The notes under the pieces: model-generated
What the model saw: only the letters and a program-made list of their open reading frames with translations
Told to the model about the DNA's origin: nothing
Database searches by the model: none
Shown here: positions 4,521 through 60,192 of the stretch, in pieces
Position numbering within the stretch: position 1 is the first letter of the stretch
How the letters are laid out: each line of letters starts with the position of its first letter
Position numbers and translations under genes: made by a program
Assembly: GCA_041650335.1 (NCBI GenBank)
Contig: JBAZLK010000003.1
Coordinates: forward strand, 57,765-121,764
Reading direction: 5' to 3'
DNA length: 64,000 bases
Origin: Patescibacteria group bacterium
GTDB taxonomy: Bacteria; Patescibacteriota; Patescibacteriia; JAHIZJ01

Positions 4521-5450
4521 TTAGAGGGTCTGACTCGTGAACTGCAGGTCTACCCCGTCCACCGTAAGAACGGCATAGCCTGGATGCCCCACGCCGAACT
4601 GTACGCCCCAGACCGCCGGCACAAACATCATCTCATACGGAACCGGTCCGAACTTGGCCAGCTCCTGGCTTGCCCTCAGCTTGGCATGGAAGTCACCGAA
4701 TACTACCGCCTTGATTCTGTCAGAGTAGTCCGAGATTCGTTCCTCAGAGATGACGTTCATCCGGTGGGTGAACAGCACAACCTGCTTTGGGCGACTGCTG
4801 GCGAGTGTCTCGGTGATGAAATCATTCTGCCGGCGAAGCAGATCCTGCAAGAAGGCGCTGTCCGAATCCTTGATCTGCCGCTTCCACCGGAAGAGGTCGC
4901 AGTCGATCCAGACGAACCGGAAGGCTTCGACTTCCTTCATGCCCCAGAGCGGCCCGGCCAATTCGAGCCAGTTGCGGATTGCCTCTTCACTCAGGTCACC
5001 TCCGATATCCCGAGTGATCTCAATCAGGATCTTCGACAAGTCGTTTCCCCAGCGAGGCCGGAAGAAGTAGTCGACTCCGTCGCGATATCCCAAGGGATGT
5101 TCTGACGGAACATGGAACAAGACCCGCCCCATCGATTCGCAAAGTCCGAGAAATTCGCCGAGAACCGATCGGCCCGCCGTTCCCTCGGCACCGCGTTCGG
5201 CAATGCCGTGGATTTGGTCGCCGAGCGTTATCAATCCGTCACTCTGCAGTGACGGATACACCCGCTGGAGCTTAGCGATCGCCCGTAAGTTCGTATGCCG
5301 AAGAAACCGGACGACCAGCCGGACAAGCCGTACTGAAACCCGTCTTTTCATCATCACAATCGGATACCACTGCTTGCGCAGCTGCTCTTCAGTGAGCTCA
5401 TCCGGATGATTCATGAGATGGGTGTTGGAAATGAGCACAAACCGTGTCAT
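4521..5450 (-). CDS. metallophosphoesterase-like (calcineurin-like) protein, tentative
   Basis: FVLISNTHL and TLGDQIHGIAERG loosely fit motifs I and II of calcineurin-like phosphoesterases. The remainder is unassigned. Confidence 0.35.
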   Translation of the reverse strand: MTRFVLISNTHLMNHPDELTEEQLRKQWYPIVMMKRRVSVRLVRLVVRFLRHTNLRAIAKLQRVYPSLQSDGLITLGDQIHGIAERGAEGTAGRSVLGEFLGLCESMGRVLFHVPSEHPLGYRDGVDYFFRPRWGNDLSKILIEITRDIGGDLSEEAIRNWLELAGPLWGMKEVEAFRFVWIDCDLFRWKRQIKDSDSAFLQDLLRRQNDFITETLASSRPKQVVLFTHRMNVISEERISDYSDRIKAVVFGDFHAKLRASQELAKFGPVPYEMMFVPAVWGVQFGVGHPGYAVLTVDGVDLQFTSQTL

Positions 5451-5701
5451 GGATAACCTCCACCTCAGATCAAGTCGTGACGATCCATCTATTCAGCCAT
5501 ACCCAGGAAACACTGCACTGTATACTATTTTTTGTGTACTGTCAAGAATGATTAAACCTGCGACTGGAAAGGCTAAGTATAGAAAAACCGTTGACCATAT
5601 TCGTTGATCAACGGTTGGACGACTGGTGAAGACGGCAAGAGAACAAACGGTACAGCCGGAAACTCGTGGCGGCGCCAGGAAAACGTGATCGAACCCGACG
5701 G

Positions 5702-6025
5702 CTAGATGCTCGTCACCAGATCGAATACGACCGGGCGATCCCGCCTCTGGCCAGGATTGTAGGCGCACATGTAGGCGCACCCCTCCAGAAAAACGTTGCC
5801 CGGCATCCACTGGCCGCGCTCGGAGTTATACTGCACGGTGGCGCGGCCCTTGAACTCGCGGTCCATCCGGACGCACGTGAAATCGATCGAGTGCATCGCC
5901 GTCCGGTCCGTAAGATCGACCGCCTGGGTAGTCACGCTTTCGGCCCTGCCAATGCTTCTGGACAGCGCCGCCTGAGCCATTCGCGTGACAAGCTCTTTCA
6001 CTACCGTCGCATCGCTCTTCGGCAT
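5702..6025 (-). CDS. hypothetical protein in a GC-rich patch
   Basis: 107-aa frame with protein-like composition. A GGGAGG Shine-Dalgarno lies 8 nt upstream of the ATG. No family match. Confidence 0.4.
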   Translation of the reverse strand: MPKSDATVVKELVTRMAQAALSRSIGRAESVTTQAVDLTDRTAMHSIDFTCVRMDREFKGRATVQYNSERGQWMPGNVFLEGCAYMCAYNPGQRRDRPVVFDLVTSI

Positions 6026-6344: not shown

Positions 6345-7301
6345 ATGGTCGCAAATTCCCTCACCCAATATATCAAAGACTTTCTCGACTACCTCGAAAT
6401 CGAGCGGAATTGCAGTCTGGCTACGAAACGGAATTACCAGGCTTACCTTGATCGTTTTCTCGATTGGTCGAAATTGTCAAAACCGCAAGACATCACGCTT
6501 GAGGTCGTCCGGCAATTTCGGCTCTATCTCAATCGGCAGGAAAACCAGAAAAAGGAAACGCTCAAAAAAAGTACTCAGAACTACTATCTTATAGCGTTGC
6601 GGGCGTTTCTGAAATACTTGGCCAAACGTGATGTTAAAACTCTGGCGCCGGAAAAAATCGAACTGGCAAAAATGCCCGAACGCCAGGTGACCTTTCTCGA
6701 GGGCGACGATCTCGAACGTTTTCTGGCTGCTCCGCTGAAATCCGACGAGCCGGCCATCATTCAAAAGCGTGACAAGGCGATCTTGGAAATGTTTTTTTCA
6801 ACCGGCCTGCGCGTTTCCGAGCTGGCCGGACTGACTAAAGAAAACGTCAATCTGGCGAAAGACGAATTCACCATTCGCGGCAAGGGCAGCAAGCTCCGGC
6901 TCGTTTTCCTCTCCAACCAGGCCAAGCACTGGCTGAAACAATACCTCGACAGCCGGGCCGATGTTTCGCTCTATCTATTTGTCCGGCACGATCGGGCGAT
7001 CAAGCGTGGTGCCGCGGCTTCGCCGCTCACCTCACGAAGCATCCAACGCCTGGTCCAGCACTACGCAAAATCCGTCGGCATCACCAAACGCATCACCCCC
7101 CACGTGCTCCGGCACTCTTACGCCACCGACCTGCTGACTGGCGGCGCCGATATCCGGTCAGTCCAGTCGTTGCTCGGCCACGCGTCAATCACGACTACGC
7201 AAATTTATACCCATATCACCGATCAGCAGTTAAAGGACGTGTATAAGGCGTTTCACAGTCGGAAACGAACGCCTGGCAAGTTAATTGACACGCCGAAATA
7301 A
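6345..7301 (+). CDS. xerC: tyrosine recombinase, XerC/XerD type
   Basis: N-terminal SAM-like core-binding region (FLDYLEIERNCSLATKRNYQAYLDRFLDW). C-terminal catalytic box HVLRHSYATDLLTGGADIRSVQSLLGHASITTTQIYTHI contains R...HxxR...Y. Confidence 0.85.
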   Translation: MVANSLTQYIKDFLDYLEIERNCSLATKRNYQAYLDRFLDWSKLSKPQDITLEVVRQFRLYLNRQENQKKETLKKSTQNYYLIALRAFLKYLAKRDVKTLAPEKIELAKMPERQVTFLEGDDLERFLAAPLKSDEPAIIQKRDKAILEMFFSTGLRVSELAGLTKENVNLAKDEFTIRGKGSKLRLVFLSNQAKHWLKQYLDSRADVSLYLFVRHDRAIKRGAAASPLTSRSIQRLVQHYAKSVGITKRITPHVLRHSYATDLLTGGADIRSVQSLLGHASITTTQIYTHITDQQLKDVYKAFHSRKRTPGKLIDTPK

Positions 7302-7326
7302 TTCTCGTATTTTCAAATCACAACTT

Positions 7327-7401
7327 GCCCTCGTAGCTCAACGGATAGAGCGCCAGCCTTCTAAGCTGGACATAGAGGTTCGATTCCTCTCGAGGGCACC
7401 A
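7327..7401 (+). tRNA. tRNA-Arg (anticodon TCT), CCA encoded
   Basis: Cloverleaf read by hand. Acceptor stem gccctcg/cgagggc, anticodon stem ccagc/gctgg with loop cttctaa (anticodon TCT), T-arm agagg-ttcgatt-cctct, and a 3' ACCA end. Confidence 0.85.
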
Positions 7402-7421
7402 GTAAATTAAAAAATGGATAT

Positions 7422-7886
7422 ATGACCGCACCCGACTTACAAAAACTCGTCCAGGAAATCGTCGCCCAGGCGCAAAAACTGAAGGACGTTCGCACCGATG
7501 CAAAAGACGCACCGGTGAATTACGCCTGTGTCTTCGCCCAAAGCGATGAAGAATACTCCCGCCTGCTTGAAGTCGCTAAAAAGTTAGGCTTGGTTTTGAA
7601 CGAAACAAAAATGGGCCCGTTGTTCCAGATCAAGCCGCTGGACACCGCGGCCGGAAAACTTCAGCTCCTGAAAATCCGTCGGCCTGACGTGAATCGGCCC
7701 GAGCGGGGCGACGCGGATTTTACCGTGGCCGATTACCCGGCCTTTAAGGAAAAGTATCTTTCCCAACCCGGCTATAAACTCCTGCTTCGGGAACGATTTG
7801 AGATGATCGAGCTGGCTGATCCAAATTTTTCGGTTCTCGCCTATTTCTCCTACCCGCCGCTCGACCAACAATACCATCTCGTATGA
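7422..7886 (+). CDS. hypothetical protein
   Basis: 154-aa frame directly downstream of the tRNA. Its stop overlaps the start of the next gene (ATGA). No recognisable motif. Confidence 0.4.
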   Translation: MTAPDLQKLVQEIVAQAQKLKDVRTDAKDAPVNYACVFAQSDEEYSRLLEVAKKLGLVLNETKMGPLFQIKPLDTAAGKLQLLKIRRPDVNRPERGDADFTVADYPAFKEKYLSQPGYKLLLRERFEMIELADPNFSVLAYFSYPPLDQQYHLV

Positions 7887-16830: not shown

Positions 16831-17916
16831 ATGAACCAAAAAGGCTTTATTTCGCTTGTTGCCACGATTATCATCGTGCTCGCCGTTCTGGCCGCTGGGG
16901 CGTATTATTATGGCCGTGGTTCGGGAAAGGTGATAACAGAAAATCGCGACGTGACCACCTTTTCAAAAATCTCGCTCAAAGGCATTGGCAATTTAAAAAT
17001 CAGTCAGGGTGAAACGGAAAGCCTCCGCATCGAGGCCGAAGACAACCTCATGAAAAAGATCGAGACCGAAGTGCGCGGCGACACGCTTCACATCGGTTTT
17101 AAATTGGCCTGGCCGTTTTGGAGCGTCTGGCCGACGAAAGACGTCAATTTCTATGTGACCGTGAAAAATCTTTCTGACGTCAGTGTTAACGGGTCAGGAA
17201 AAATCGACTTTGCCACCCTGGCTCTCCAGGACGTAGATTTACGCGTTAGTGGCTCGGGTACCATCACCGGTACAACGCTAACTGGCCGCGATGTTAATAT
17301 TGACATTAGCGGTTCGGGGAAAGTTCGGCTCGGCCTGAATGTTGAAAAAATTGTTTCACACATCAGCGGTTCGGGCGACTTCTCGCTCAATGGCACCGCG
17401 ACTGATCAAGAGATTTCCATCAGCGGTTCGGGGAAGTACTTGGCCAAAGATCTGGTCAGTCAGAATGTGAAGGTCGATATCAGCGGCTCGGGGAAATCTG
17501 AGGTAAACGCCCAAAAAAGTCTGACGGTAAAAATCAGCGGCAGCGGCAGCGTCTCATATTTCGGCCAGCCGGTAATCGATCAGTCCATTTCCGGCTCGGG
17601 CAAGATTGAACGGCTTACCGGCAACCCGACAACGAATACAAACATAAACTCCAACACAAACACAGCCGCCAATGTAAATTATCTACCGCCTCCAAGCAGT
17701 GCCTATGCCAATAACCCGAAATATTGTGAAAAAACGTCAGACTGCATCGCTGTTGATCATCCCCTAAATCATTGCTACAAGGCCTACTACAATATCTACG
17801 CCCAGACCGAGATTGAAGCTTATAGAAACCAGACCGGCGCCATGATACTGGATTGCCCATTTTTCGGACCAGCCATATGCGAAAATAACGTCTGTACTGG
17901 ACAACCACAGACATAA
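16831..17916 (+). CDS. DUF2807 / GIN-domain (putative adhesin head) protein with Cys-rich C-terminal domain
   Basis: N-terminal TM anchor, then at least 8 tandem ~20-aa beta-helix-like repeats each containing (I/V)SGSG(K/T). An NTNINSNTNTAANVN linker precedes a C-terminal 8-Cys module. Confidence 0.6.
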   Translation: MNQKGFISLVATIIIVLAVLAAGAYYYGRGSGKVITENRDVTTFSKISLKGIGNLKISQGETESLRIEAEDNLMKKIETEVRGDTLHIGFKLAWPFWSVWPTKDVNFYVTVKNLSDVSVNGSGKIDFATLALQDVDLRVSGSGTITGTTLTGRDVNIDISGSGKVRLGLNVEKIVSHISGSGDFSLNGTATDQEISISGSGKYLAKDLVSQNVKVDISGSGKSEVNAQKSLTVKISGSGSVSYFGQPVIDQSISGSGKIERLTGNPTTNTNINSNTNTAANVNYLPPPSSAYANNPKYCEKTSDCIAVDHPLNHCYKAYYNIYAQTEIEAYRNQTGAMILDCPFFGPAICENNVCTGQPQT

Positions 17917-17993: not shown

Positions 17994-18251
17994 TCAGTTC
18001 CGTTTTTCGACGACAATCGAACATTTCGTCAGCAACGCAGCCATGGCGCCGAGGGCGGCGAAGACAGGCAGCAGTACTGCGCCGACCGCCGCGAACGTCA
18101 CCGGTATTTCCAATATCGACTCACCTTTTTCGTTTTTGATAATGATCCGGCGAATGTTGCCCTGATGGATCAATTCCTTTACTTTTTGGACGAGCTCGTC
18201 GCCGTTGATTTTGAATTCCTCTTGATTCGGGCTTGTTTTTTCGGTTGCCAT
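17994..18251 (-). CDS. DUF4342-like small protein
   Basis: 85 aa; EEFKINGDELVQKVKELIHQGNIRRIIIKNEKGESILEIPVTFAAVGAVLLPVFAALGAMAALL matches the DUF4342 pattern. Confidence 0.5.
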   Translation of the reverse strand: MATEKTSPNQEEFKINGDELVQKVKELIHQGNIRRIIIKNEKGESILEIPVTFAAVGAVLLPVFAALGAMAALLTKCSIVVEKRN

Positions 18252-18482
18252 AATGTTGTTGGATTTTTTAATAATTATTCAGAGAAAATTAAGGTTCGCA
18301 CTATAGTATATTATTTACCTAACCTGAGCGTACGAATTTCGTTCCACATGTGGACAACTTTTATGAATAGGTGCTCGCTTTTCAGCTAGGCTATATCACT
18401 GTACACTGTTGCCCAAATACTCATCACTGCCAGACGCGGCACGCACGACACGCCCTTCGCCCTAATATGTTATCACGCCATT

Positions 18483-19640
18483 ATGAGACGGACAAAAGCA
18501 AAGGTTATCTATATACAGAAAATTACGCCAACCGTCATCGAGTTGGCCATCGCCCGATCGGACGGACGTCCGTTTTTCGAATTTCGGGCGGGTCAATACG
18601 CAACCGTGAGCTTCCCCGATCAGCCGAGCCTCCGGGGCGAGCGTTCCTTTTCCATCGCCAGCGCTCCGAGCGAGCGTTCTCGGCTGCGTTTCGGTGTTCG
18701 GGTCGTCGGACGATATACCACCAAATTAAGCCAGCTCCAGCCCGGCGAACGGGTCATGGTTGGTGGACCGTTTGGGAAATTTACGTATGAACCCGAACGC
18801 GACGACGCCTCGGTATTCCTTGCCGGCGGCATCGGCATCACCCCTTTTCTGAGCATGATCCAGCTGGCGACGGAGCGCGGTTTGAGCCAGCGCCTGACGC
18901 TTTTTTACAGCGTCCGATCATTGAACGACGCCTCGTATCAAAACGATCTGGAGCGGTGGCAGCAAACGAATCCGAATTTTAAATATTTTCTCGCGGTCAC
19001 GAACGGCCAGCTTCGGCCACCCGCTGACAACCTGATCTCGGGCCGGCTGAACCGCGAGCTGCTCACAAAGAAATTAGCTGACGATCTCTGGAACCGGACG
19101 TACTTTTTGTGCGGCCCGCCCGCCTTTATGTCGGCCATGACAGCCATGCTGCGCTCAATGGGTTTTTCGACGAAGGTCATCCATTCCGAGCGTTTCGGCG
19201 TTGGCTCGCAAGAATTTATTGAACGCGGCACGCCGATTCCGAAATATGTTTTCGCCGCCTGGGGCGTATCAACCGCCATTCTGCTTGGTGCAATCGTCCG
19301 GATCGAGCAAGCCAAACATCTTATTATCCCTCCCACCCAGGACACATCCGCTGAGGCCGCACCGATCGCCAACGAACAAGGGGATAATAGCAATCAGACA
19401 AACTCTGCCCATCTTCCAACCGTTGAACAGAGTGCAGCCCAGCCAACGCCGGCACCAACAACCAAGCCGACTGCTCCAACTCCGACACCAGCACCGAGCC
19501 CAGCGCCGAAACCGACCCCGGCTCCATCAACAAATACCGCTGTCCCGTCGCAACCAACGACAAATATTAACTCACCAGCGCCGGCACCGACCCCGGCCCC
19601 GAAACCAGCTCCCGTCGTTCCTCGGACAACGGTTTCATAA
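18483..19640 (+). CDS. FNR-like FAD/NAD(P)-binding oxidoreductase with C-terminal TM helix and Pro/Thr/Ala-rich tail
   Basis: RAGQYATVSF ... RSFSIASAP (RxYS FAD motif), LAGGIGITPFLSMI (GGxGxxP NAD motif) and YFLCGPPAFM (CGPxxM). Followed by a TM helix YVFAAWGVSTAILLGAIVRI and ~110 aa of PT-rich low complexity. Confidence 0.7.
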   Translation: MRRTKAKVIYIQKITPTVIELAIARSDGRPFFEFRAGQYATVSFPDQPSLRGERSFSIASAPSERSRLRFGVRVVGRYTTKLSQLQPGERVMVGGPFGKFTYEPERDDASVFLAGGIGITPFLSMIQLATERGLSQRLTLFYSVRSLNDASYQNDLERWQQTNPNFKYFLAVTNGQLRPPADNLISGRLNRELLTKKLADDLWNRTYFLCGPPAFMSAMTAMLRSMGFSTKVIHSERFGVGSQEFIERGTPIPKYVFAAWGVSTAILLGAIVRIEQAKHLIIPPTQDTSAEAAPIANEQGDNSNQTNSAHLPTVEQSAAQPTPAPTTKPTAPTPTPAPSPAPKPTPAPSTNTAVPSQPTTNINSPAPAPTPAPKPAPVVPRTTVS

Positions 19641-19652
19641 TCTCCAAGCTTT

Positions 19653-20597
19653 ATGGTATCGCCACCGACCGCCACCAGACAATTTCCCGCCCTCGGCACG
19701 ATTGTTGCCGGTGGTTTTCGCCTCGATCCGGTGACCGCCGACCGACTTTTTGACGATCTTCAACGACAGATCGCCGTGTTTGAAAATCGCTTCAGCCGTT
19801 TTCTTCCCGATTCAGAACTATCTCGACTTAATCAACGAGCCGGTAAACGCGTTCCGGTCAGCCGCGATCTAATCAAGCTTATATTGACTGCCCAAGGGAT
19901 CTGGCGGTATACCGACGGTCTGATTGATTCGACAATCGGTCAGGCGCTCGTCGCGGCCGGGTATGATGCACCCTTTGAGCTTTTGCCGTACCGGGTTGAA
20001 ACCTCCGACCGACCAATGGCGAAATCAGAACATTCCTTCGCCGAAGTCAAGATCAACCGGAAACAAAAAACGGTATTCTTTCCGGCTGATCTACAATTTG
20101 ATTTTGGCGGTCTTGGCAAAGGCTATCTGCTCGACCAACTCCGGTCACGGGTAAAAGCGAAGACGTCTAATTATTGGCTGTCCCTCGGCGGCGACATGAT
20201 CGTGTCGGGCACCGACACGGACGGCCGCGCCTGGTCAATCGGCATCCAGGACCCAAACAAGCCGGAGCGGGATTTTGCCTACTTACGCCTCCCCGCTGGA
20301 GAATGGAACGTGGCTACCTCCGGCACCACGAAGCGGCGCGGCGGACAATCGAAAAAATCTTGGCATCATATCATCGACCCGCGAACCGGCCAACCAGCCC
20401 GAACCGACGTTATCCAAACGACTGTTTTGGCGCCGACCGCGGTGGAGGCTGATGCCCTGGCAAAAGTCGTTCTACTGCTCGGTCCGACCGCTGGCCTGAA
20501 GTGGGCTGCACGCCACAACCTTGAAGCGCTGATTGTGACAAAAGACAGCCGCACGCATACTACGCCCATGCTAAAAAATTACTTGGCTCAGGTATGA
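19653..20597 (+). CDS. apbE: FAD:protein FMN transferase (ApbE family)
   Basis: ApbE hallmarks DFGGLGKGY, ATSGTTKRRG and WHHIIDPRTG. Its stop overlaps the next start (ATGA). Confidence 0.8.
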   Translation: MVSPPTATRQFPALGTIVAGGFRLDPVTADRLFDDLQRQIAVFENRFSRFLPDSELSRLNQRAGKRVPVSRDLIKLILTAQGIWRYTDGLIDSTIGQALVAAGYDAPFELLPYRVETSDRPMAKSEHSFAEVKINRKQKTVFFPADLQFDFGGLGKGYLLDQLRSRVKAKTSNYWLSLGGDMIVSGTDTDGRAWSIGIQDPNKPERDFAYLRLPAGEWNVATSGTTKRRGGQSKKSWHHIIDPRTGQPARTDVIQTTVLAPTAVEADALAKVVLLLGPTAGLKWAARHNLEALIVTKDSRTHTTPMLKNYLAQV

Positions 20598-21565
20598 AAT
20601 TGAGATATCTATTTGCGTTTGCCACTATCAGTTTGTTCATGCTCATTCGTCCCCTGGCAGTGCGCGCTGCGACGGCCACAACGACGACGACCCTGGCGGA
20701 TTCGAGCACGGAACGCCAGGCCGAGATTGAATCAGACGACGAAAAAGAGGTGGACGAAGCGCCGGAGGTTGCGCCCACGCCAAGCACGATCCAGCCCGTT
20801 GAACCAGACGCGCCGGTGGCAACAGCGCCAGTTATTATACCGACGCCCACGGTTGAAACAGCGCCGGCCACACCGACTCAACCGAAAACGGTAGCCACTC
20901 CAAGTGCCGACCAAGTGCCGACGGCTGAAACGGCGCCGAATAACACAGCCGCGCCGCTGACCGAACCGCCCACAGACGCCGCACCCGCCATCACACCCCA
21001 AGCGGCAAACTCCCCGCTTTCTTGGACCTGGATCGCGACGCGGGCGGCCGGTATCGCTTCCTTTCTTCTTCTGGCCGTGATCACAATAACCGGGATAAGC
21101 CTAACGACCGGTCTACTCTTTCGCCTCATGTCGCCAGCTTCAGCCTGGTCAATGCATCGCGCGATCGGCTCCGCGCTGCTTGTCTCCATAATCATTCATA
21201 TTGGCGCGCTGCCGTTTGACCGCTTCATCAGACTACGCGTGGTCGATCTCTTGGTACCATTTGCCTCCAGCTATCGCCCGACTCTTGTTGCCCTTGGTAT
21301 TTTCGGATTTTATCTGCTCCTTCTTGTTCTCGGCACATCGCTCTACACGCTCACGTCGCATGCCCGGTTCTGGCGCACTGTCCACTTCTTCGGTTTCCCA
21401 ATGTTTGTCATGATTTTCCTCCATAGCGTTTTGATCGGTTCCGACAGTAAACAGCCGTGGATGATCGCGATGTATTGGAGTACGGCTGTTTTGGTCAGTC
21501 TCTTCGTTGTCTATCGGCTCGCCTGGAAATATCGAAAACCGGCCCTGGCAAATTATGCCGACTAA
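20594..21565 (+). CDS. ferric-reductase-type (FRD, PF01794-like) di-heme transmembrane protein with extracellular acidic/PT-rich N-terminal region
   Basis: Signal peptide, then ~130 aa rich in Ala/Pro/Thr/Glu/Asp, then 6 TM helices. Paired His residues in two helices (MHRAIGSALLVSIIIHIG; VHFFGFPMFVMIFLHSV) match bis-heme ligands of NOX/MsrQ-type domains. Confidence 0.6.
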   Translation: MKLRYLFAFATISLFMLIRPLAVRAATATTTTTLADSSTERQAEIESDDEKEVDEAPEVAPTPSTIQPVEPDAPVATAPVIIPTPTVETAPATPTQPKTVATPSADQVPTAETAPNNTAAPLTEPPTDAAPAITPQAANSPLSWTWIATRAAGIASFLLLAVITITGISLTTGLLFRLMSPASAWSMHRAIGSALLVSIIIHIGALPFDRFIRLRVVDLLVPFASSYRPTLVALGIFGFYLLLLVLGTSLYTLTSHARFWRTVHFFGFPMFVMIFLHSVLIGSDSKQPWMIAMYWSTAVLVSLFVVYRLAWKYRKPALANYAD

Positions 21566-22489: not shown

Positions 22490-23065
22490 ATGACAAACTA
22501 TCTTCGACCGCCTAGCCAACAAGCAGATGCAAAGCCAGAAGGCTTTCGCTCCATCTATACGCTCTATGCGCCAAAAGTATTTAATTATCTCTGGTATCGC
22601 GTCGGCAATAATTATGCCGTGGCCGAAGACCTCATGCAGGAAACGTTCCTGCGCGCCTTCGAACGCCTGCCCTTCTACACCCAGCGCGGCTATTCCTACC
22701 TGACGTATCTCATTACCATCGCGCACAATCAGCTCATGAATTACTTCCGACGGCCGATCACCTTGTCGCTCGAAGAAGCCTATTACCTGACGGTTGACAC
22801 CAGTTCCGAAGTCGAACGTCGGCTCATGGCGAGCCATGTTTGGGGTCACATCCGTCGCTTGCCGCCGAGCGAGTACCGTCTCTTTGATCTCCGCTACCGG
22901 CAAGATTTATCCATCAAAGCAATCTCAAAAAAAGTTCATAAGTCGGAAAACGCCGTCAAATTGACGCTCAGCCGCTCCCGAGAAAAAATCCGCCGCGAGC
23001 TCGCCCAAGAAGACCGACTACAAAAAGTCTCGTTCCATCGCGCTACCCAGCCCGCTGCCGCCTGA
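22490..23065 (+). CDS. RNA polymerase sigma factor, ECF (sigma-70 group 4) family
   Basis: Region 2 LMQETFLRAFERLPFY...YLTYLITIAHNQLMNYFRR. Region 4 HTH DLRYRQDLSIKAISKKVHKSENAVKLTLSRSREKIR. Preceded by a TGcTATAAT-like -10 element. Confidence 0.8.
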   Translation: MTNYLRPPSQQADAKPEGFRSIYTLYAPKVFNYLWYRVGNNYAVAEDLMQETFLRAFERLPFYTQRGYSYLTYLITIAHNQLMNYFRRPITLSLEEAYYLTVDTSSEVERRLMASHVWGHIRRLPPSEYRLFDLRYRQDLSIKAISKKVHKSENAVKLTLSRSREKIRRELAQEDRLQKVSFHRATQPAAA

Positions 23066-53921: not shown

Positions 53922-54029
53922 GCATTACTGACCGCGGTGATAACATGATAAAAGTGAGTGATACCACATACCAACGCCAATCAAATAAGATAACCATGGG
54001 TTAAAAGATAAATATTTTCATAATCCGCT

Positions 54030-54872
54030 ATGTCAACAGTACTAAATGATAGTTTGTACAAGAGATTTGGCCTTGAGATCGATTTGGAAGAAGTCCAATC
54101 GGGTTTTTGCATGTATACTAAAAATGTTTTACTAGATTATTTATCTCCAATTATAAGTCCTGAAATATATAACAATACGAGTATATTAAAAGAAATACAA
54201 ACGAATACTCTAACCGAGTCTTGCCGTCAGCTTTTTAAGGATCCAAGAGCATATTATAGTTATGATAATTTCATTAAAAGAATTTTCGATATAAATTGTA
54301 TATCTTTTGAAAAATATCTAATAAATTTACAAATATTCATTAACGTGCTGTTTAATTATAAACAAATTAGACCCGAACTTAATCAAGTTTTAGAAAATTT
54401 ATCGAATTATCTCATTGATTATCCAATATTAAACATCGCCCTTAAAATATATAAAAGTAAACCCGCCCAAATATTACCCTCCATATCAAAAACCATTGAT
54501 TTAAACATTGAAAATACTTTAAATATTTTAGAGACCATAAAATATAAACCAGTGCTGATAAATTATGAAGAGGGTCTAAAAGAATTTCTATTAGCAAAAA
54601 CTCAATCGCAATTGAAAGATGTTGTCGAAGACATGTTAACTGCATGTGATGAGTTAGCAAAAATAGCCTTAAAGGATAAAAATAAAGGATTCAAACACTT
54701 TTTTAAAAACAGCGACAATTACTTTAAAAATCGAAGTACTAAAGAACTTTATAGAAATCTAAAGGATTGGATGGATAGTATAAAACATGGTTCATTGAAA
54801 GATTTTGATCGGATGGATATTGAAACAATTATTAATGCCGTATCTTCATTTATAAGATTAATGGCAAAATAG
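54030..54872 (+). CDS. hypothetical protein with extreme AT bias (roughly 28% GC)
   Basis: 280-aa Ile/Asn/Lys/Leu-rich frame, uninterrupted, no motif. Confidence 0.5.
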   Translation: MSTVLNDSLYKRFGLEIDLEEVQSGFCMYTKNVLLDYLSPIISPEIYNNTSILKEIQTNTLTESCRQLFKDPRAYYSYDNFIKRIFDINCISFEKYLINLQIFINVLFNYKQIRPELNQVLENLSNYLIDYPILNIALKIYKSKPAQILPSISKTIDLNIENTLNILETIKYKPVLINYEEGLKEFLLAKTQSQLKDVVEDMLTACDELAKIALKDKNKGFKHFFKNSDNYFKNRSTKELYRNLKDWMDSIKHGSLKDFDRMDIETIINAVSSFIRLMAK

Positions 54873-54954
54873 TTTTTATATACTCTACCTAAAAAACCCG
54901 CACCGGCCAATAGAACACAATTTTATCCGCGCTTTTTAGGAAAATAATACACAT

Positions 54955-55560
54955 ATGAAACAAACAATTTGCCTATTCGGCGACAGCATCACCTGGGGCG
55001 CCTGGGATCGGGAACGGGGCGGCTGGGCTGCCCGGCTGAGAAGCTATTTGGAAACGAATAACCGCGATGTTGCCGTGTACAACTGCGGCGTATCCGGCGA
55101 TACGGTTGCGGATTTGCTTCAACGATTCGATGTCGAGTGCAAAGCCAGGGGCCCAAACATCATCGTCTTGTCGATCGGGATAAATGACTCTCGATATTAC
55201 ACGACAAAAGACAAACCAGAAACAACCCCCGAGCAATTTCAAAAGAACTTTGACGAACTTCTTAAGAAGGCAAAAAAGTATGCTGATGCAATCATCTGTT
55301 TGGGGCTCACTAAAGTGGATGAAAAGATAACAACGCCCTGCTCTTGGAAGCCAGATAAGTACTACGATGATGAAAATATCAGAAAGTATGACGCGATAAT
55401 GCAAAAGTCTTGTGACCACGCCGGTGTACTTTTTCACAGCCTGTATGACTTACTAGACTTTTCCGATCTTGTCGATGGTTTACACCCCAGCTCCAAAGGG
55501 CATGAAAAAATGTTTCTAGCGATAAAAGATTTTTTTCAGAAACAGGGGTATATATCATAG
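54955..55560 (+). CDS. SGNH/GDSL family hydrolase
   Basis: Block I ICLFGDSITWG (GDS nucleophile), block III GINDS, block V DGLHPSSKGH (DxxH). Confidence 0.8.
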   Translation: MKQTICLFGDSITWGAWDRERGGWAARLRSYLETNNRDVAVYNCGVSGDTVADLLQRFDVECKARGPNIIVLSIGINDSRYYTTKDKPETTPEQFQKNFDELLKKAKKYADAIICLGLTKVDEKITTPCSWKPDKYYDDENIRKYDAIMQKSCDHAGVLFHSLYDLLDFSDLVDGLHPSSKGHEKMFLAIKDFFQKQGYIS

Positions 55561-55667
55561 CTGGTAATTAACGTATTTCTCTACTCAGCTCGAGAAATAT
55601 TTTTTAAATTAAAAAGTCGTGCAGTAAGCCACACGACTCGAAGTTCGAAGGTGCAATTCTTCAGAGG

Positions 55668-55883
55668 TTATCGGAGAAGAATCGTGCCTGTCCGACCTTC
55701 GCAGTTGTCGCCCTTGGCGGATATGGTACCCGCGGCCAGGCGCTGCTTGATGACGCCTTCCAGGGCAGTGCCTTTGGCACACTGGAAGCCGCCTGGTCCC
55801 ATGCTCAGAAAACCGCATGTCGTCTCACCCTGGCCGGGCTGGCACGTCTTCTCGATGTGTTCTGCTGTTAGCTCCAAGATCAT
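55668..55883 (-). CDS. small Gly/Cys-containing protein (71 aa), tentative
   Basis: MILELTAEHIEKTCQPGQGETTCGFLSMGPGGFQCAKGTALEGVIKQRLAAGTISAKGDNCEGRTGTILLR. AAGGAGG precedes the start but with only 2 nt spacing. Same strand as the gene upstream of it. GC-rich. Confidence 0.3.
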   Translation of the reverse strand: MILELTAEHIEKTCQPGQGETTCGFLSMGPGGFQCAKGTALEGVIKQRLAAGTISAKGDNCEGRTGTILLR

Positions 55884-56011
55884 CACCTCCTTCTTGGTTT
55901 ACAGAACACCCTACCTTAGCACGTGCCTACGTAATGTCAAATTGCTGGAAGTTGTTAATCAAAAAAGACCCTGTTTATTACTCGTCGGGTCTCGGTAACG
56001 AGTGTGTGCTG

Positions 56012-58248: not shown

Positions 58249-60192
58249 CTACTGCCTGGGCGCGAGCGAGAAGTTCACGTTTTTGGCAATATTGCCGATC
58301 GTGACTGTTACGTTTCGCAAGCTAGGCAGGTCATAATACGGGCTGACAACAGTGACGCGGCGCGCGCCGGGAGCGATCCCGTCGACAACATAGTAGCCGT
58401 TCGAGTCTGACCAGGCTGAAAACACCGTATCAACTATCTTCACCAGCGCGGAAACGGGCAGACCGGTCACCTTATCCGTCAGGTAGCCGGAAACCGAGCC
58501 GGCCGGCGCGAGGGCCACGTTTGAGCCGGCAGTCTGACCAGCCGTGACGTTAACGTTTACAATCTGGGTAATATATTTGGTCGAGCTGATTTTCAGACGA
58601 TAGGTGTTGGTTTTCAGGCTCCGTACCAGGTAATACCCTTTTTCATCAGTCACGGCAGACGTATACGGAATCTCCTTGCCGTTATTCGGCGCATAAACCT
58701 CGACAACCGCGCCCGCGACGGCTTTGCCGCCAGCCGTCACCCGTCCGCGGATTGAGCCGCCCTTGTCGAGTCGGTACTTTTGGCCGGTCGTATTGGCATT
58801 TAAGGTGATTGTTTCCTTGGTATACGTAATGTAGCCGTTGAGGATGATTTTCAGCCGGTAATCACCAGGTGAGACATTGCGGAAGGTGAAGCCGCCGTCG
58901 CTCTTCGTGGTAAAGGCGTAATCAGCCACCTCCGAGCGGGTTTTATTCCGTTTAAATAGATAGACAACCGCATTATCGAGCGGGGCGCCGCTCTTTGATT
59001 TCACGGATCCGCTGAATTTCACAGCCGCTGGCAGGGTGAGGTTTTTACCCGAGGTGGTCTGACCGGCGCTGACGGAAACGCTATAAAGCTTCTGGCCGAC
59101 GTAATAGTTCCGGGTGGCCGTAACCGTATAACTGGTCGACGGTTTCAGCCGTGAGAGCGTATACTTCCCGCCCGACCCAGTCGTCGTGGTATAGACATGG
59201 CCGGAGCCGTCATCGGCCGTAACGGTAACGCCCGAGAGACCGCTGCCGTTCGATTTCGTGATTTTGCCTTTTATCTTTCCTCCCTTGTTCAAGGAGAGAT
59301 TCCGATTTGTCAGATGTGTGTCATCGCTCGCAATGGAAACGTCCGCTGTTTTTGTGACATATCCCGACGCGCTGACCGTCATCGTATAATCACCCACAGC
59401 CGTACTATTCATGGTATACATGTCGTAAATAGATACCGTATACCGGCCGGACGAGTTCGTCGTGGCCCCGTAAGTGCCGCCGCCCGACTTCGTAAGGGTC
59501 ACCGTCGCACCGGATAGAGCAGATCCGCTGGCATTCCTTATCACGCCGGAAACGGTGCTGGCCGGTTTCAGCCAAAAATTCCTGGTCACAGTCTGTTCAT
59601 CACCAGTCAAATTGACACCGCTTACGGAAGCGCTGAAATATCCAGGTTTTTGGATTACCACATTGTACACGCCAGCCGCCGAAACAGCGTAGTCGTCAGG
59701 CAACGGAATACTATAATACACGCCGCTCGAGGTTGAGGTTGCATACCCGTACCCGTTCACCGAGCCGCCGGCGTGGGTATAATAAATGGTCGCCCCACCC
59801 ACTCGAGTAACTCCATCAGATGCGTATACGCGTCCGGTAAAACGGCCGCGCTTGGTTAGAGAAAAATTTTTAGTCACCGTACCGGCGCTCGTAACCGTGG
59901 CTGTTTTTGTCTGTTGGATCAAATACATATTGGAAACATTCCCTAGATACATGTAGTGTGTTACGTCATACGTGCCGGGCGCCACGGCAACGCTGTATGA
60001 GCCATCGGCTCCGGTCGTGGCGTATTCGACAGACCCAGTGCTTGTGCTCTGCACATACATAGTCAATGATTCAATCGGACTGCCGTTTGACGCGTACGTG
60101 ACGGTCCCCTGGATTGTTCCATCCGCGGCCAGGGCGGGCGTGGCCACAATAAAAGCCGCGCCGATGATGAACGCGTAGAGAAGTTTTTTCAT
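58249..60192 (-). CDS. secreted multi-repeat protein of carboxypeptidase-regulatory-like / Cna-B-like beta-sandwich domains
   Basis: Signal peptide MKKLLYAFIIGAAFIVATPALA. At least 7 ~85-aa repeats with recurring G.V....G.P...A.V....(S/T)...TD.NG.Y patterns (e.g. GSIRGRVTAGGKAVAGAVVEVYA...TDEKGYY). Confidence 0.65.
   Translation of the reverse strand: MKKLLYAFIIGAAFIVATPALAADGTIQGTVTYASNGSPIESLTMYVQSTSTGSVEYATTGADGSYSVAVAPGTYDVTHYMYLGNVSNMYLIQQTKTATVTSAGTVTKNFSLTKRGRFTGRVYASDGVTRVGGATIYYTHAGGSVNGYGYATSTSSGVYYSIPLPDDYAVSAAGVYNVVIQKPGYFSASVSGVNLTGDEQTVTRNFWLKPASTVSGVIRNASGSALSGATVTLTKSGGGTYGATTNSSGRYTVSIYDMYTMNSTAVGDYTMTVSASGYVTKTADVSIASDDTHLTNRNLSLNKGGKIKGKITKSNGSGLSGVTVTADDGSGHVYTTTTGSGGKYTLSRLKPSTSYTVTATRNYYVGQKLYSVSVSAGQTTSGKNLTLPAAVKFSGSVKSKSGAPLDNAVVYLFKRNKTRSEVADYAFTTKSDGGFTFRNVSPGDYRLKIILNGYITYTKETITLNANTTGQKYRLDKGGSIRGRVTAGGKAVAGAVVEVYAPNNGKEIPYTSAVTDEKGYYLVRSLKTNTYRLKISSTKYITQIVNVNVTAGQTAGSNVALAPAGSVSGYLTDKVTGLPVSALVKIVDTVFSAWSDSNGYYVVDGIAPGARRVTVVSPYYDLPSLRNVTVTIGNIAKNVNFSLAPRQ

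Follow-up and report, generated by a model that had tools for sequence, protein, structure and literature searches.

A three-gene operon for a probable split NOX/MsrQ-type electron-export module with a signal-less ApbE in a Patescibacteria genome

We analyzed a stretch of 64,000 nucleotides from the genome of a Patescibacteria group bacterium (GenBank assembly GCA_041650335.1, contig JBAZLK010000003.1, positions 57,765 to 121,764 of the forward strand; hereafter the window) and report on three co-directional genes within it. These genes, g1, g2 and g3, encode a reductase of the ferredoxin-reductase family (FNR), an ApbE-family flavin adenine dinucleotide (FAD):protein flavin mononucleotide (FMN) transferase and a membrane protein with a ferric-reductase domain (FRD), respectively. 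The coordinates of the genes, of their parts and of other features of the window are collected in Table 1. A first-pass annotation of the sequence had described the genes as tightly linked, with a 13-nt gap followed by a 4-nt overlap; the overlap of g2 and g3 is indeed 4 nt, and the spacing between g1 and g2 is 12 nt. A divergent gene for a DUF4342 protein lies upstream, separated from g1 by a spacer of 231 nt, and a convergent M23-peptidase gene begins 11 nt past the g3 stop, so that g1, g2 and g3 make up a self-contained unit.

Table 1. Features of the window discussed in the text (window positions; residues are those of the encoded protein).
Feature	Position	Strand	Remarks
g1: FNR-type NAD(P)H/FAD reductase with membrane anchor, Pro/Thr tail and C-terminal motif	18483..19640	+	385 aa
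g1 FAD-binding beta-barrel (residues 6-102)	18498..18788	+	PF00970; RSFSIAS at 54, GRYT at 76
g1 NAD(P)-binding domain (residues 112-219)	18816..19139	+	PF00175; GGIGITPF at 115, CGPPAFM at 210
g1 hydrophobic helix (residues 252-280), predicted membrane anchor	19236..19322	+	AlphaFold2 helix, block pLDDT mostly 85-96
g1 Pro/Thr/Ala-rich low-complexity tail (residues 281-379), predicted extracytoplasmic tether	19323..19619	+	
g1 extreme C-terminus P-R-T-T-V-S (residues 380-385), candidate non-canonical ApbE site	19620..19637	+	
g2: ApbE-family FAD:protein FMN transferase without signal peptide	19653..20597	+	314 aa
g3: signal peptide, acidic/PT linker and predicted di-heme FRD membrane protein	20594..21565	+	323 aa
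g3 N-terminal signal peptide or signal anchor (residues 1-25, ...AVRA/AT)	20594..20668	+	read from sequence
g3 exposed region (residues 26-139)	20669..21010	+	acidic segment 26-70, net charge -10, then Thr/Ala/Pro-rich linker
g3 FRD membrane domain (residues 140-323)	21011..21562	+	5 transmembrane helices; His188/His202, His264/His277
g3 Ser283-Asp284 of subfamily signature G-[TS]-D	21440..21445	+	outer face, 5-7 residues past last heme His
Sigma-70-like promoter match	18278..18307	+	9/12 consensus positions; weak; in the DUF4342-g1 spacer
DUF4342 protein gene	17994..18251	-	nearest upstream neighbour
Membrane-anchored DUF2807 protein (GIN-domain, adhesin-head-like)	16831..17916	+	Cys-rich C-terminal extension
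ECF sigma factor	22490..23065		0.9 kb downstream of operon
Secreted protein with six CarboxypepD_reg repeats	58249..60192	-	647 aa; holds LSGATVTL

The product of g1 matched both Pfam families expected of an FNR-type reductase (FAD_binding_6, PF00970, E=1.1e-7; NAD_binding_1, PF00175, E=1.6e-13; both above gathering scores), and the RSFSIAS, GGIGITPF and CGPPAFM motifs noted in the first-pass annotation are present. Of the two models specific to ferric-reductase-type dehydrogenases, PF08030 scored 17.3 bits (E=0.005), under its 22.2-bit cutoff, and PF08022 gave no match; many g1 homologs carry one or both of these families. The best NCBIfam similarities were to the reductase modules of BenC, flavohemoprotein, MmoC and NqrF, and g1 is 100% identical to sequence P0085, named 'FAD-dependent oxidoreductase [Patescibacteria group bacterium]'. 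An AlphaFold2 (AF2) model built with 66 homologs showed the FNR fold over residues 1-239, with a predicted local distance difference test (pLDDT) score of 82-98, mostly 94-98. The C-terminal helix and the Pro/Thr/Ala-rich tail that had been noted beyond the FNR domain were both recovered: nearly every g1 homolog with a tail has a hydrophobic stretch around residue 250, and the 105 aa that follow the helix of g1 consist of 26% P, 17% T and 16% A. The tail is predicted to be disordered (pLDDT 50-68, with the last residues <50) and ranges from ~50 to >300 aa in length among g1 homologs. The full-length model provided no evidence for or against docking of the C-terminal motif on the FNR domain.

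The membrane domain of g3, previously read as having six transmembrane (TM) helices, adopts the FRD fold in an AF2 model (pLDDT 89.7, predicted template modelling score 0.84), in which the core comprises five TM helices, to which the N-terminal signal or anchor segment is added. Hydropathy in a 12-aa window peaks at 2.42 over residues 1-35, and the 24 close homologs in the alignment have this N-terminal segment too. The two histidine pairs that had been proposed as heme ligands stood up in a proper alignment: their spacing is that of the NADPH oxidases (NOX), Hx13H for His188/His202 and Hx12H for His264/His277, and all four residues are invariant in 25 close homologs and in 25 locus-derived FRDs and are found in 79-80 of 80 database homologs. 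His188-Arg189 fits the inner-heme site of NOX-type proteins and not the FMN site of Escherichia coli MsrQ (Arg77-Arg78; PMC12525009). The subfamily signature G-[TS]-D is conserved to a similar degree across the 80 homologs (G in 79, T/S in 78, D in 77) and forms, with Asp209 and Pro222-Phe223, a conserved patch on the outer face. Loop charges place the C-terminus of g3 inside and the G-[TS]-D loop outside, in agreement with a fused FRD-FNR relative described below. PF01794, the family that the first-pass annotation had suggested looking for on g3, failed to match even at E<=10, and phmmer of g3 against PDB sequences retrieved nothing relevant. A database search with residues 140-323, however, retrieved 84 homologs (E 1e-74 to 1e-6, identity 29-68%), many of which carry precomputed PF01794 matches or the names ferric reductase, MsrQ or YedZ. 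As g3 has no direct family match of its own, its identity is drawn from these homologs and from the fold, which together point to an FRD membrane protein that presumably binds two hemes.

The second gene encodes an ApbE-family protein (PF02424, E=2e-56), so that the three domain assignments made at first pass all held, those of FNR and ApbE through Pfam and that of the FRD through PF01794-bearing homologs. The NCBIfam ApbE model scored g2 at 112 bits against an equivalog cutoff of 498 bits. Like g1, g2 is 100% identical to a protein from a Patescibacteria metagenome-assembled genome. g2 carries DFGGLGKG (150), GGD (179), ATSG (221), HHIIDPRTG (238) and EADA (265), and could be aligned along its length with Listeria FmnB (7esa) and the E. 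coli enzyme (2o18/4xgw) at residue level and with Vibrio cholerae ApbE (6nxi) at table level. g2 retains both the catalytic residue of HHIIDP, His239, and the EADA motif that binds metal, and is predicted to be a catalytically intact ApbE FMN transferase. In E. coli Ftp, replacement of Tyr60 by Asn or Ala gives an FAD pyrophosphatase (PMC4767422); the equivalent position of g2 is Phe (FSRF), which assigns g2 to the FAD-binding transferase class. No signal peptide was found in g2, nor in any of the 25 ApbEs from the loci or the 120 nearest database homologs, which are 242-344 aa long and carry the FExRFSRF motif at a median residue of 41. The g2 ORF (open reading frame), which starts 12 nt past the g1 stop, cannot be extended upstream, and the alignment to the V. 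cholerae crystal chain already pairs its residue 12 with residue 13 of that chain. Cytosolic ApbEs without a signal peptide are already known (PMC12052999), and g2 is likewise predicted to stay in the cytoplasm. The first-pass annotation had taken the presence of ApbE to imply a flavinylated, probably extracytoplasmic, component; with an enzyme predicted to be cytoplasmic, this simple reading does not fit.

To define the distribution of the system, hidden Markov models made from g1, g2 and g3 were used to search loci drawn from genomic and metagenomic sequences. The FNR, ApbE and FRD genes stand in this order at 19 distinct loci with mutually unrelated flanks, which include the window, L001, L003, L005, L009-L017, L029-L032, L111 and L113. 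As the same order recurs next to different flanking genes, the arrangement is far beyond chance, and the expectation that the trio would co-occur as a unit was borne out. Of the 34 loci with the g3-type FRD subfamily, which span Patescibacteria, Chloroflexota and Bacillota, 33 have an ApbE gene beside it, the exception (L028) being a gene fragment; sampled from the ApbE side, an FRD adjoined in 3 of 3 picks. ApbE and FRD alone are adjacent in Chloroflexota, in Bacillota (Fictibacillus, Rummeliibacillus) and in other relatives. The only fused case is a Wolfebacteria locus (L019), where FRD and FNR are joined in one protein of 422 aa downstream of the same ApbE, as in the classical architecture of NOX. 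This fusion next to the same ApbE confirms the earlier suggestion that g1 and g3 are the two halves of one NOX/ferric reductase, made as separate polypeptides. The closest genomes with g3 homologs belong to Candidatus Kerfeldbacteria and other Patescibacteria, and many of the source samples are metagenome-assembled genomes from groundwater or sediment. Saccharibacteria, a genetically tractable lineage (PMC10187176), also have homologs (P0133, P0316). A metagenome scan with the g1 alignment, which used the single and too general pattern AGGIG[IV]TP, placed 3 of 80 loci in the system, namely the trios L031 and L032 and a locus (L069) in which apbE lies directly upstream of a 439-aa g1-like protein.

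The tail of g1 ends in a conserved motif. Among g1 homologs of at least 300 aa (n=94, nearly all tailed), 67 of 94 end in [TS]-x-x-S-COOH and 66 of these 67 have Pro at -5, the consensus ending being P-R-T-x-[VML]-S; the 66-sequence g1 alignment has Ser385 in every sequence and Pro380 in at least 90% of them. A further 13 homologs end in a Cys-bracketed loop, in which 10 of the 13 have S-G-[VL] and then Thr or Lys (for example, S-G-V-T). As a background, 2 of 173 long stop-to-stop segments of the window end in the stricter [ST]-x-[VMLIA]-S. At loci with an FRD-FNR fusion or with no FNR, a small ORF adjoining apbE has a K/R-flanked N-terminal anchor, a low-complexity tail and a similar ending. 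P-R-T-type endings were counted on such stand-alone ORFs at L018 (...KKPRTTVS), L019 (...PQPRTILS), L020 (...AKPRTRSS), L022 (...DRQTRRS), L024 (...DRLTRRS), L025 and L027 (both ...DRMTQRS) and L112 (...PRLRSRGS); the tail ORFs of L023 and L006 end in ...AITSAS and ...IRTRATP. Judged from these stand-alone versions beside apbE, the module made up of anchor, tether and P-R-T-x-x-S is an independent part of the ApbE-FRD system, which in the window is fused to g1. From the K/R-rich anchor flank of the stand-alone versions, the positive-inside rule predicts an N-in/C-out orientation, with the tail outside the cell.

We propose the tail end P-R-T-T-V-S as a candidate ApbE substrate. The gene order of tail module, apbE and FRD is conserved across phyla, the hydroxyl spacing of [TS]-x-hydrophobic-S mirrors that of [ST]-G-A-[ST], and a terminal peptide of seven residues suffices for ApbE, engineered flavin tags of this length performing best at protein termini (PMC12052999). 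The acidic D/E/H-rich segment seen in g3 likewise occurs as a separate secreted or anchored ORF by apbE, at L006, L018, L020, L022, L024, L025, L026 and L027. At L031 (3959-5752), a 597-aa g1 homolog has a tail of >300 aa rich in Pro, Ala and Thr, with an internal TSASGVVS and an acidic end, RSRDNDRDDD; tail and acidic modules can thus be combined on one protein. A gene for a VIT1-family iron transporter (PF01988) adjoins the trio of L113 (1569-2336, -) and the ApbE-FRD pair of L006 (2780-3904, -), two unrelated loci, which matches the iron-assimilation proposal made for MsrQ-like clusters (PMC8238504).

A search for a conventional flavinylation target was less productive. The first-pass annotation had pointed to the ApbE target motif D-x-x-[ST]-G-A-[ST], and this strict form is absent from all six frames of the 64-kb window; even the core [ST]GA[ST], which is carried by all experimentally proven ApbE sites (PMC8238504, PMC12052999), is absent from g1 and g3. 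The loose form occurs in only two credible ORFs of the window, one of them secreted (Table 1), in which we rejected the SGAT as a chance match, the consensus of the CarboxypepD_reg repeat itself yielding G-A-x-V. Neighbouring ORFs within 4.5 kb contained no [ST]GA[ST] in 10 of 15 sequences scanned, and the few matches elsewhere were not substrate-like; no convincing canonical site was found near 14 related loci, and neither PF04205 nor any other known substrate gene was present within ~3.5-6 kb at 10 loci with precomputed Pfam annotations. Candidate sites within the trio itself were also considered and set aside. The segment ERF[GS][VI]GS after the FNR domain might have been a degenerate ApbE site; its GS is missing from L015-L017, and the fused protein of L019 has no such segment. 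Thr248 of g3, invariant and at the cytoplasmic end of TM3, is a general FRD feature and not a special flavinylation site, since it stands 16 residues before His264 just as Ser135 of MsrQ stands before His151 (PMC12525009). G-[TS]-D lies on the outer face, which is incompatible with the action of a cytoplasmic enzyme on a residue of a TM loop, and is kept here as a conserved patch. With no canonical target in view, the proposed role of g2 in flavinylation escapes refutation only through a non-canonical target, for which we put forward the end of the g1 tail.

On balance, then, we regard the three genes as probably forming one operon, the products of which would make up a membrane-bound NOX/MsrQ-type module for the export of electrons, with a signal-less ApbE and a candidate substrate in the tail. 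The genes, their domains, the conservation of motifs and gene order, the predicted fold and the lack of a signal peptide and of a canonical site were observed directly; we infer the cofactors, the direction of electron flow, the acceptor, the topology of the tail and the flavinylation site. The FAD of g1, in the cytoplasmic FNR domain, would take electrons from NAD(P)H, and g1 would be held at the membrane by its own C-terminal helix. Electrons would pass to the inner b heme (His188/His264) and then to the outer b heme (His202/His277) of g3, and would exit at the outer face to an extracellular acceptor, most likely a metal ion such as Fe(III) that the acidic segment tethered to g3 would capture, with O2 as an alternative. 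g2 would flavinylate a non-canonical substrate, for which the P-R-T-T-V-S end of the flexible tail of g1 is the best candidate. That the tail end is modified before the unfolded tail is exported is doubtful, though possible. More speculative still, and rather unlikely as a complete scheme, is that the cytoplasmic ApbE, using cytoplasmic FAD as its FMN source, puts FMN on the terminal Ser (or on the Thr at -3), that the tail is then threaded out and that its FMN shuttles electrons from the outer heme to distant acceptors, which would lie beyond the cell wall and could be Fe(III) or possibly the surface of a host cell.

Several observations weigh against this picture. The proposed tail site is without the Gly-Ala conserved in every proven ApbE site, and the predicted site lies outside and the enzyme inside, so that modification would be needed before export. 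AF2 assigns no structure to the g1 tail, the tail end deviates at L021 (...GSSGSSR), and no P-R-T-type ORF was seen at L026. g3 has neither a Pfam nor an NCBIfam match, its TM domain alone fares no better even at E<=10, PF01794 included, and its family profile matches no solved structure by sequence. The search for a canonical target in the genome itself covered 64 kb of a genome of ~0.9 Mb, and the neighbours of the operon in the window, which encode DUF2807, DUF4342, M23-peptidase, ECF (extracytoplasmic function) sigma factor, C39-like peptidase and CoA-binding proteins, give no functional hint.

The last-named scope of the search bears on an alternative that keeps the core as described and gives g2 a substrate of a conventional kind (FMN-bind, DUF2271, DUF3570 or NqrB/RnfD-like), the gene for which would lie in another part of the genome; the tail module would then be structural or a docking element, loosely p22phox-like, whose end binds the outer face of the FRD. 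The missing Gly-Ala of the tail motif is in its favour, as is the invariant outer-face patch (Asp209, Pro222-Phe223 and G-[TS]-D), which could bind a peptide. Yet a secreted, folded FMN-bind domain would be out of reach of a signal-less ApbE, known substrate genes are absent within ~3.5-6 kb at the 10 Pfam-annotated loci and substrate-like [ST]GA[ST] matches within 4.5 kb in the 15 sequences scanned, extracytosolic flavinylation components are reported to be strikingly under-represented in genomes of the Candidate Phyla Radiation (CPR; PMC8238504), and the tight order of tail module, apbE and FRD across phyla argues for a direct relation; we consider such a substrate unlikely. A target within reach of a cytoplasmic ApbE could instead be the cytoplasmic face of the complex itself, with FMN attached covalently to g1 or to a loop of g3 on the cytoplasmic side; this FMN would be fixed in place on the way from FAD to the inner heme and would be the covalent counterpart of the flavin held by E. 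coli MsrQ (FMN) or by STEAP. FRD proteins can hold a flavin on the cytoplasmic side (PMC12525009), there is precedent for cytoplasmic ApbEs acting on reductases of the cytoplasm (PMC12052999), and the invariant gene pair is ApbE-FRD. g3, however, has both inner-heme His residues of NOX, so that the flavin pocket of MsrQ and STEAP would be occupied by heme (PMC12525009). Thr248, the sole invariant cytoplasmic-side Ser/Thr of the FRD, is the general feature described above, ERF[GS][VI]GS is not conserved in L015-L017, and g1 and g3 have no [ST]GA[ST]. We therefore regard covalent FMN at this position as quite improbable.

The lack of a visible canonical substrate would also be explained if g2 were no protein flavinylase at all and served as a cytoplasmic FAD-binding or FAD-pyrophosphatase protein of flavin trafficking, supplying or salvaging flavin for g1 in a flavin-auxotrophic CPR cell; some ApbE/Ftp proteins do split FAD to FMN and AMP (PMC4767422). 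The aromatic residue at the Tyr60 position instead places g2 in the FAD-binding class, both ApbE classes act as FMN transferases when given a substrate (PMC4767422), the catalytic His and EADA are kept, and a general supply of flavin leaves unexplained the strict linkage to one FRD subfamily in Bacillota, which make their own flavins, all of which renders this explanation very improbable. The acceptor, finally, may be other than a metal: the complex could produce superoxide from O2, as SpNOX does, pass electrons to an extracytoplasmic repair enzyme or reductase, as MsrQ does to MsrP, or import electrons in the reverse direction. The fold and His pattern are NOX-like, several homologs were named MsrQ by annotators of the Joint Genome Institute, and at one locus only, L003, a gene for an Fe/Mn superoxide dismutase lies 1.7 kb downstream of the trio (7267-7872, -). 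Against these stand the absence of an MsrP-type molybdoenzyme (PF00174) or other reductase from the Pfam-annotated neighbourhoods and from the 8 scanned window ORFs that flank the operon, and the acidic/His-rich exposed segments and VIT1 neighbours, which point to cations; that O2 may be scarce in the groundwater and sediment samples is a weaker point. A role of these kinds appears improbable.

CPR bacteria, or Patescibacteria, are thought to be fermentative episymbionts without electron-transport chains, and have been reported to have almost no extracytosolic flavinylation systems. A widely conserved path for electrons from NAD(P)H to the outside would, if real, change views on their redox balance, iron acquisition and interaction with hosts. 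If the tail were indeed the carrier of FMN, it would define a new ApbE recognition motif and the first case of flavinylation before export, with no need for FAD export, and would constitute a minimal extracellular electron-transfer chain by which a CPR cell without a respiratory chain could re-oxidise NAD(P)H. For flavoprotein biochemistry, the system is notable for a clade of signal-less ApbEs that is strictly linked to one FRD subfamily and that goes with a conserved tethered C-terminal peptide and not with a known substrate domain; this peptide is a candidate for the 'orphan ApbE' substrate left open by Méheust et al. (2021). The occurrence of fused, split and accessory-rich NOX-type enzymes within one lineage should, in addition, be useful for the study of docking between FRD and dehydrogenase.

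Around the operon, the promoter-like match upstream of g1 is weak, 6 such sites having been found where shuffled sequences gave 2.2. Neither the DUF2807 nor the DUF4342 gene recurs beside the trio at other loci. At those loci, pairs of an OmpR-type response regulator and a histidine kinase adjoin the system at L001, L006, L008, L022, L030 and L112, and kinase/regulator neighbours at no fewer than six unrelated loci suggest that expression is regulated, perhaps in response to metal or envelope stress. Directly after the FRD gene of L018 and L019, in two CPR lineages, lies a gene (5394-5867 and 7163-7684, respectively) for a conserved, membrane-anchored Big_14 Ig-like protein with conserved Cys residues, which may be a further accessory subunit. 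Elsewhere in the window, GC content falls to 0.38 at 54001-56000, compared with ~0.52 in the remainder, over ORFs 54030-54872 and 54955-55560. This part may be foreign or recently acquired DNA; no tRNA lies near it, the only tRNAs of the window being at 7327 and 11015.

Among known systems, the nearest are the MsrQ-like flavinylation-associated clusters, in which apbE accompanies a PF01794 protein, usually fused to PF00175 (Méheust et al., 2021, eLife, PMC8238504; models in Huang et al., 2024, PMC11334425). They resemble the window system in the grouping of apbE with a membrane protein of the di-heme type (PF01794 there; predicted through homologs for g3) and with a PF00175 module for NAD(P)H, as well as a proposed NAD(P)H-driven export of electrons and an occasional VIT1 neighbour, and under the operational definition of the class, a PF01794 gene clustered with apbE or with an FMN-bind gene, g3 and g2 belong to it, g3 being counted as PF01794 through its homologs. 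In 1437 of 1797 of these clusters, however, the NAD-binding domain is fused, whereas in the window it is a separate protein with its own anchor (PMC8238504). MsrQ-like clusters typically include a secreted or lipidated FMN-bind protein, a domain that the window system is without, and the study that defined them was built on ApbE and FMN-bind components bearing signal peptides, unlike the window ApbE. The window system, for its part, adds the module of anchor, tail and PRTxxS and the acidic exposed segments, and it occurs in CPR, which are under-represented in PMC8238504, while the MsrQ-like clusters are mostly actinobacterial.

A precedent for the split arrangement is the two-component, NOX-like system of E. 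coli MsrQ and Fre (Juillan-Binard et al., 2017, as cited in PMC8238504; Carpentier et al., 2025, PMC12525009), a 'split NOX' in which an FRD membrane protein is fed by a separate cytosolic NAD(P)H flavin reductase of the FNR family. MsrQ has one heme and a non-covalent FMN, Arg77 replacing the inner His, whereas g3 has all four His; Fre is soluble and its gene unlinked, whereas g1 is predicted to be membrane-anchored and is co-operonic. MsrQ serves the molybdoenzyme MsrP, and the Pfam-annotated neighbourhoods of the window system contain no PF00174 gene; MsrPQ, moreover, works without ApbE. With the NADPH oxidases SpNOX, csNOX5 and NOX2 the system shares the Hx13H and Hx12H bis-His pattern of the di-heme core (PMC11031084, PMC11564096, PMC5676040) and an FNR-type dehydrogenase module with GGIGITPF and CGPP, and the relative at L019 has the fused form. 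NOX, however, is a single polypeptide with six TM helices that needs no ApbE and has no tethered tails, whereas the window system consists of two polypeptides, with a 5-TM core and a signal or anchor segment.

Flavin-based extracellular electron transfer in Listeria (Ndh2, EetA/B, FmnB, PplA) resembles the window system in its Gram-positive-type envelope, an ApbE-family enzyme and NADH as the source of electrons (PMC8238504, PMC9973259), and also, if our proposal is correct, in a membrane-tethered flavinylated carrier outside the cell. It differs in that FmnB is an extracytosolic lipoprotein that needs exported FAD, that PplA has folded FMN-bind domains with SGAT sites and that electrons cross the membrane by way of quinone and EetA/B and not, as predicted here, through a di-heme FRD. 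Closest to the proposed tail site is the engineered flavin tag, a seven-residue D-x-x-[ST]-G-A-[ST] at a protein terminus, which shares with it the use of a short unstructured terminal peptide as the full ApbE substrate (PMC12052999) and makes a natural C-terminal peptide target mechanistically plausible; the tag is artificial and has the canonical motif, whereas the window-type ending, P-R-T-x-[VML]-S-COOH, is a candidate site.

The first-pass annotation was not aware of a description of this exact arrangement. Our literature searches found no description of an FNR-ApbE-FRD system in CPR, but the MsrQ-like clusters (PMC8238504) and E. coli MsrQ with its flavin reductase (PMC12525009) precede it. 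The window system falls within the MsrQ-like class, with the MsrQ/Fre pair as the precedent for its split form, and is a variant of that class and not a new category.

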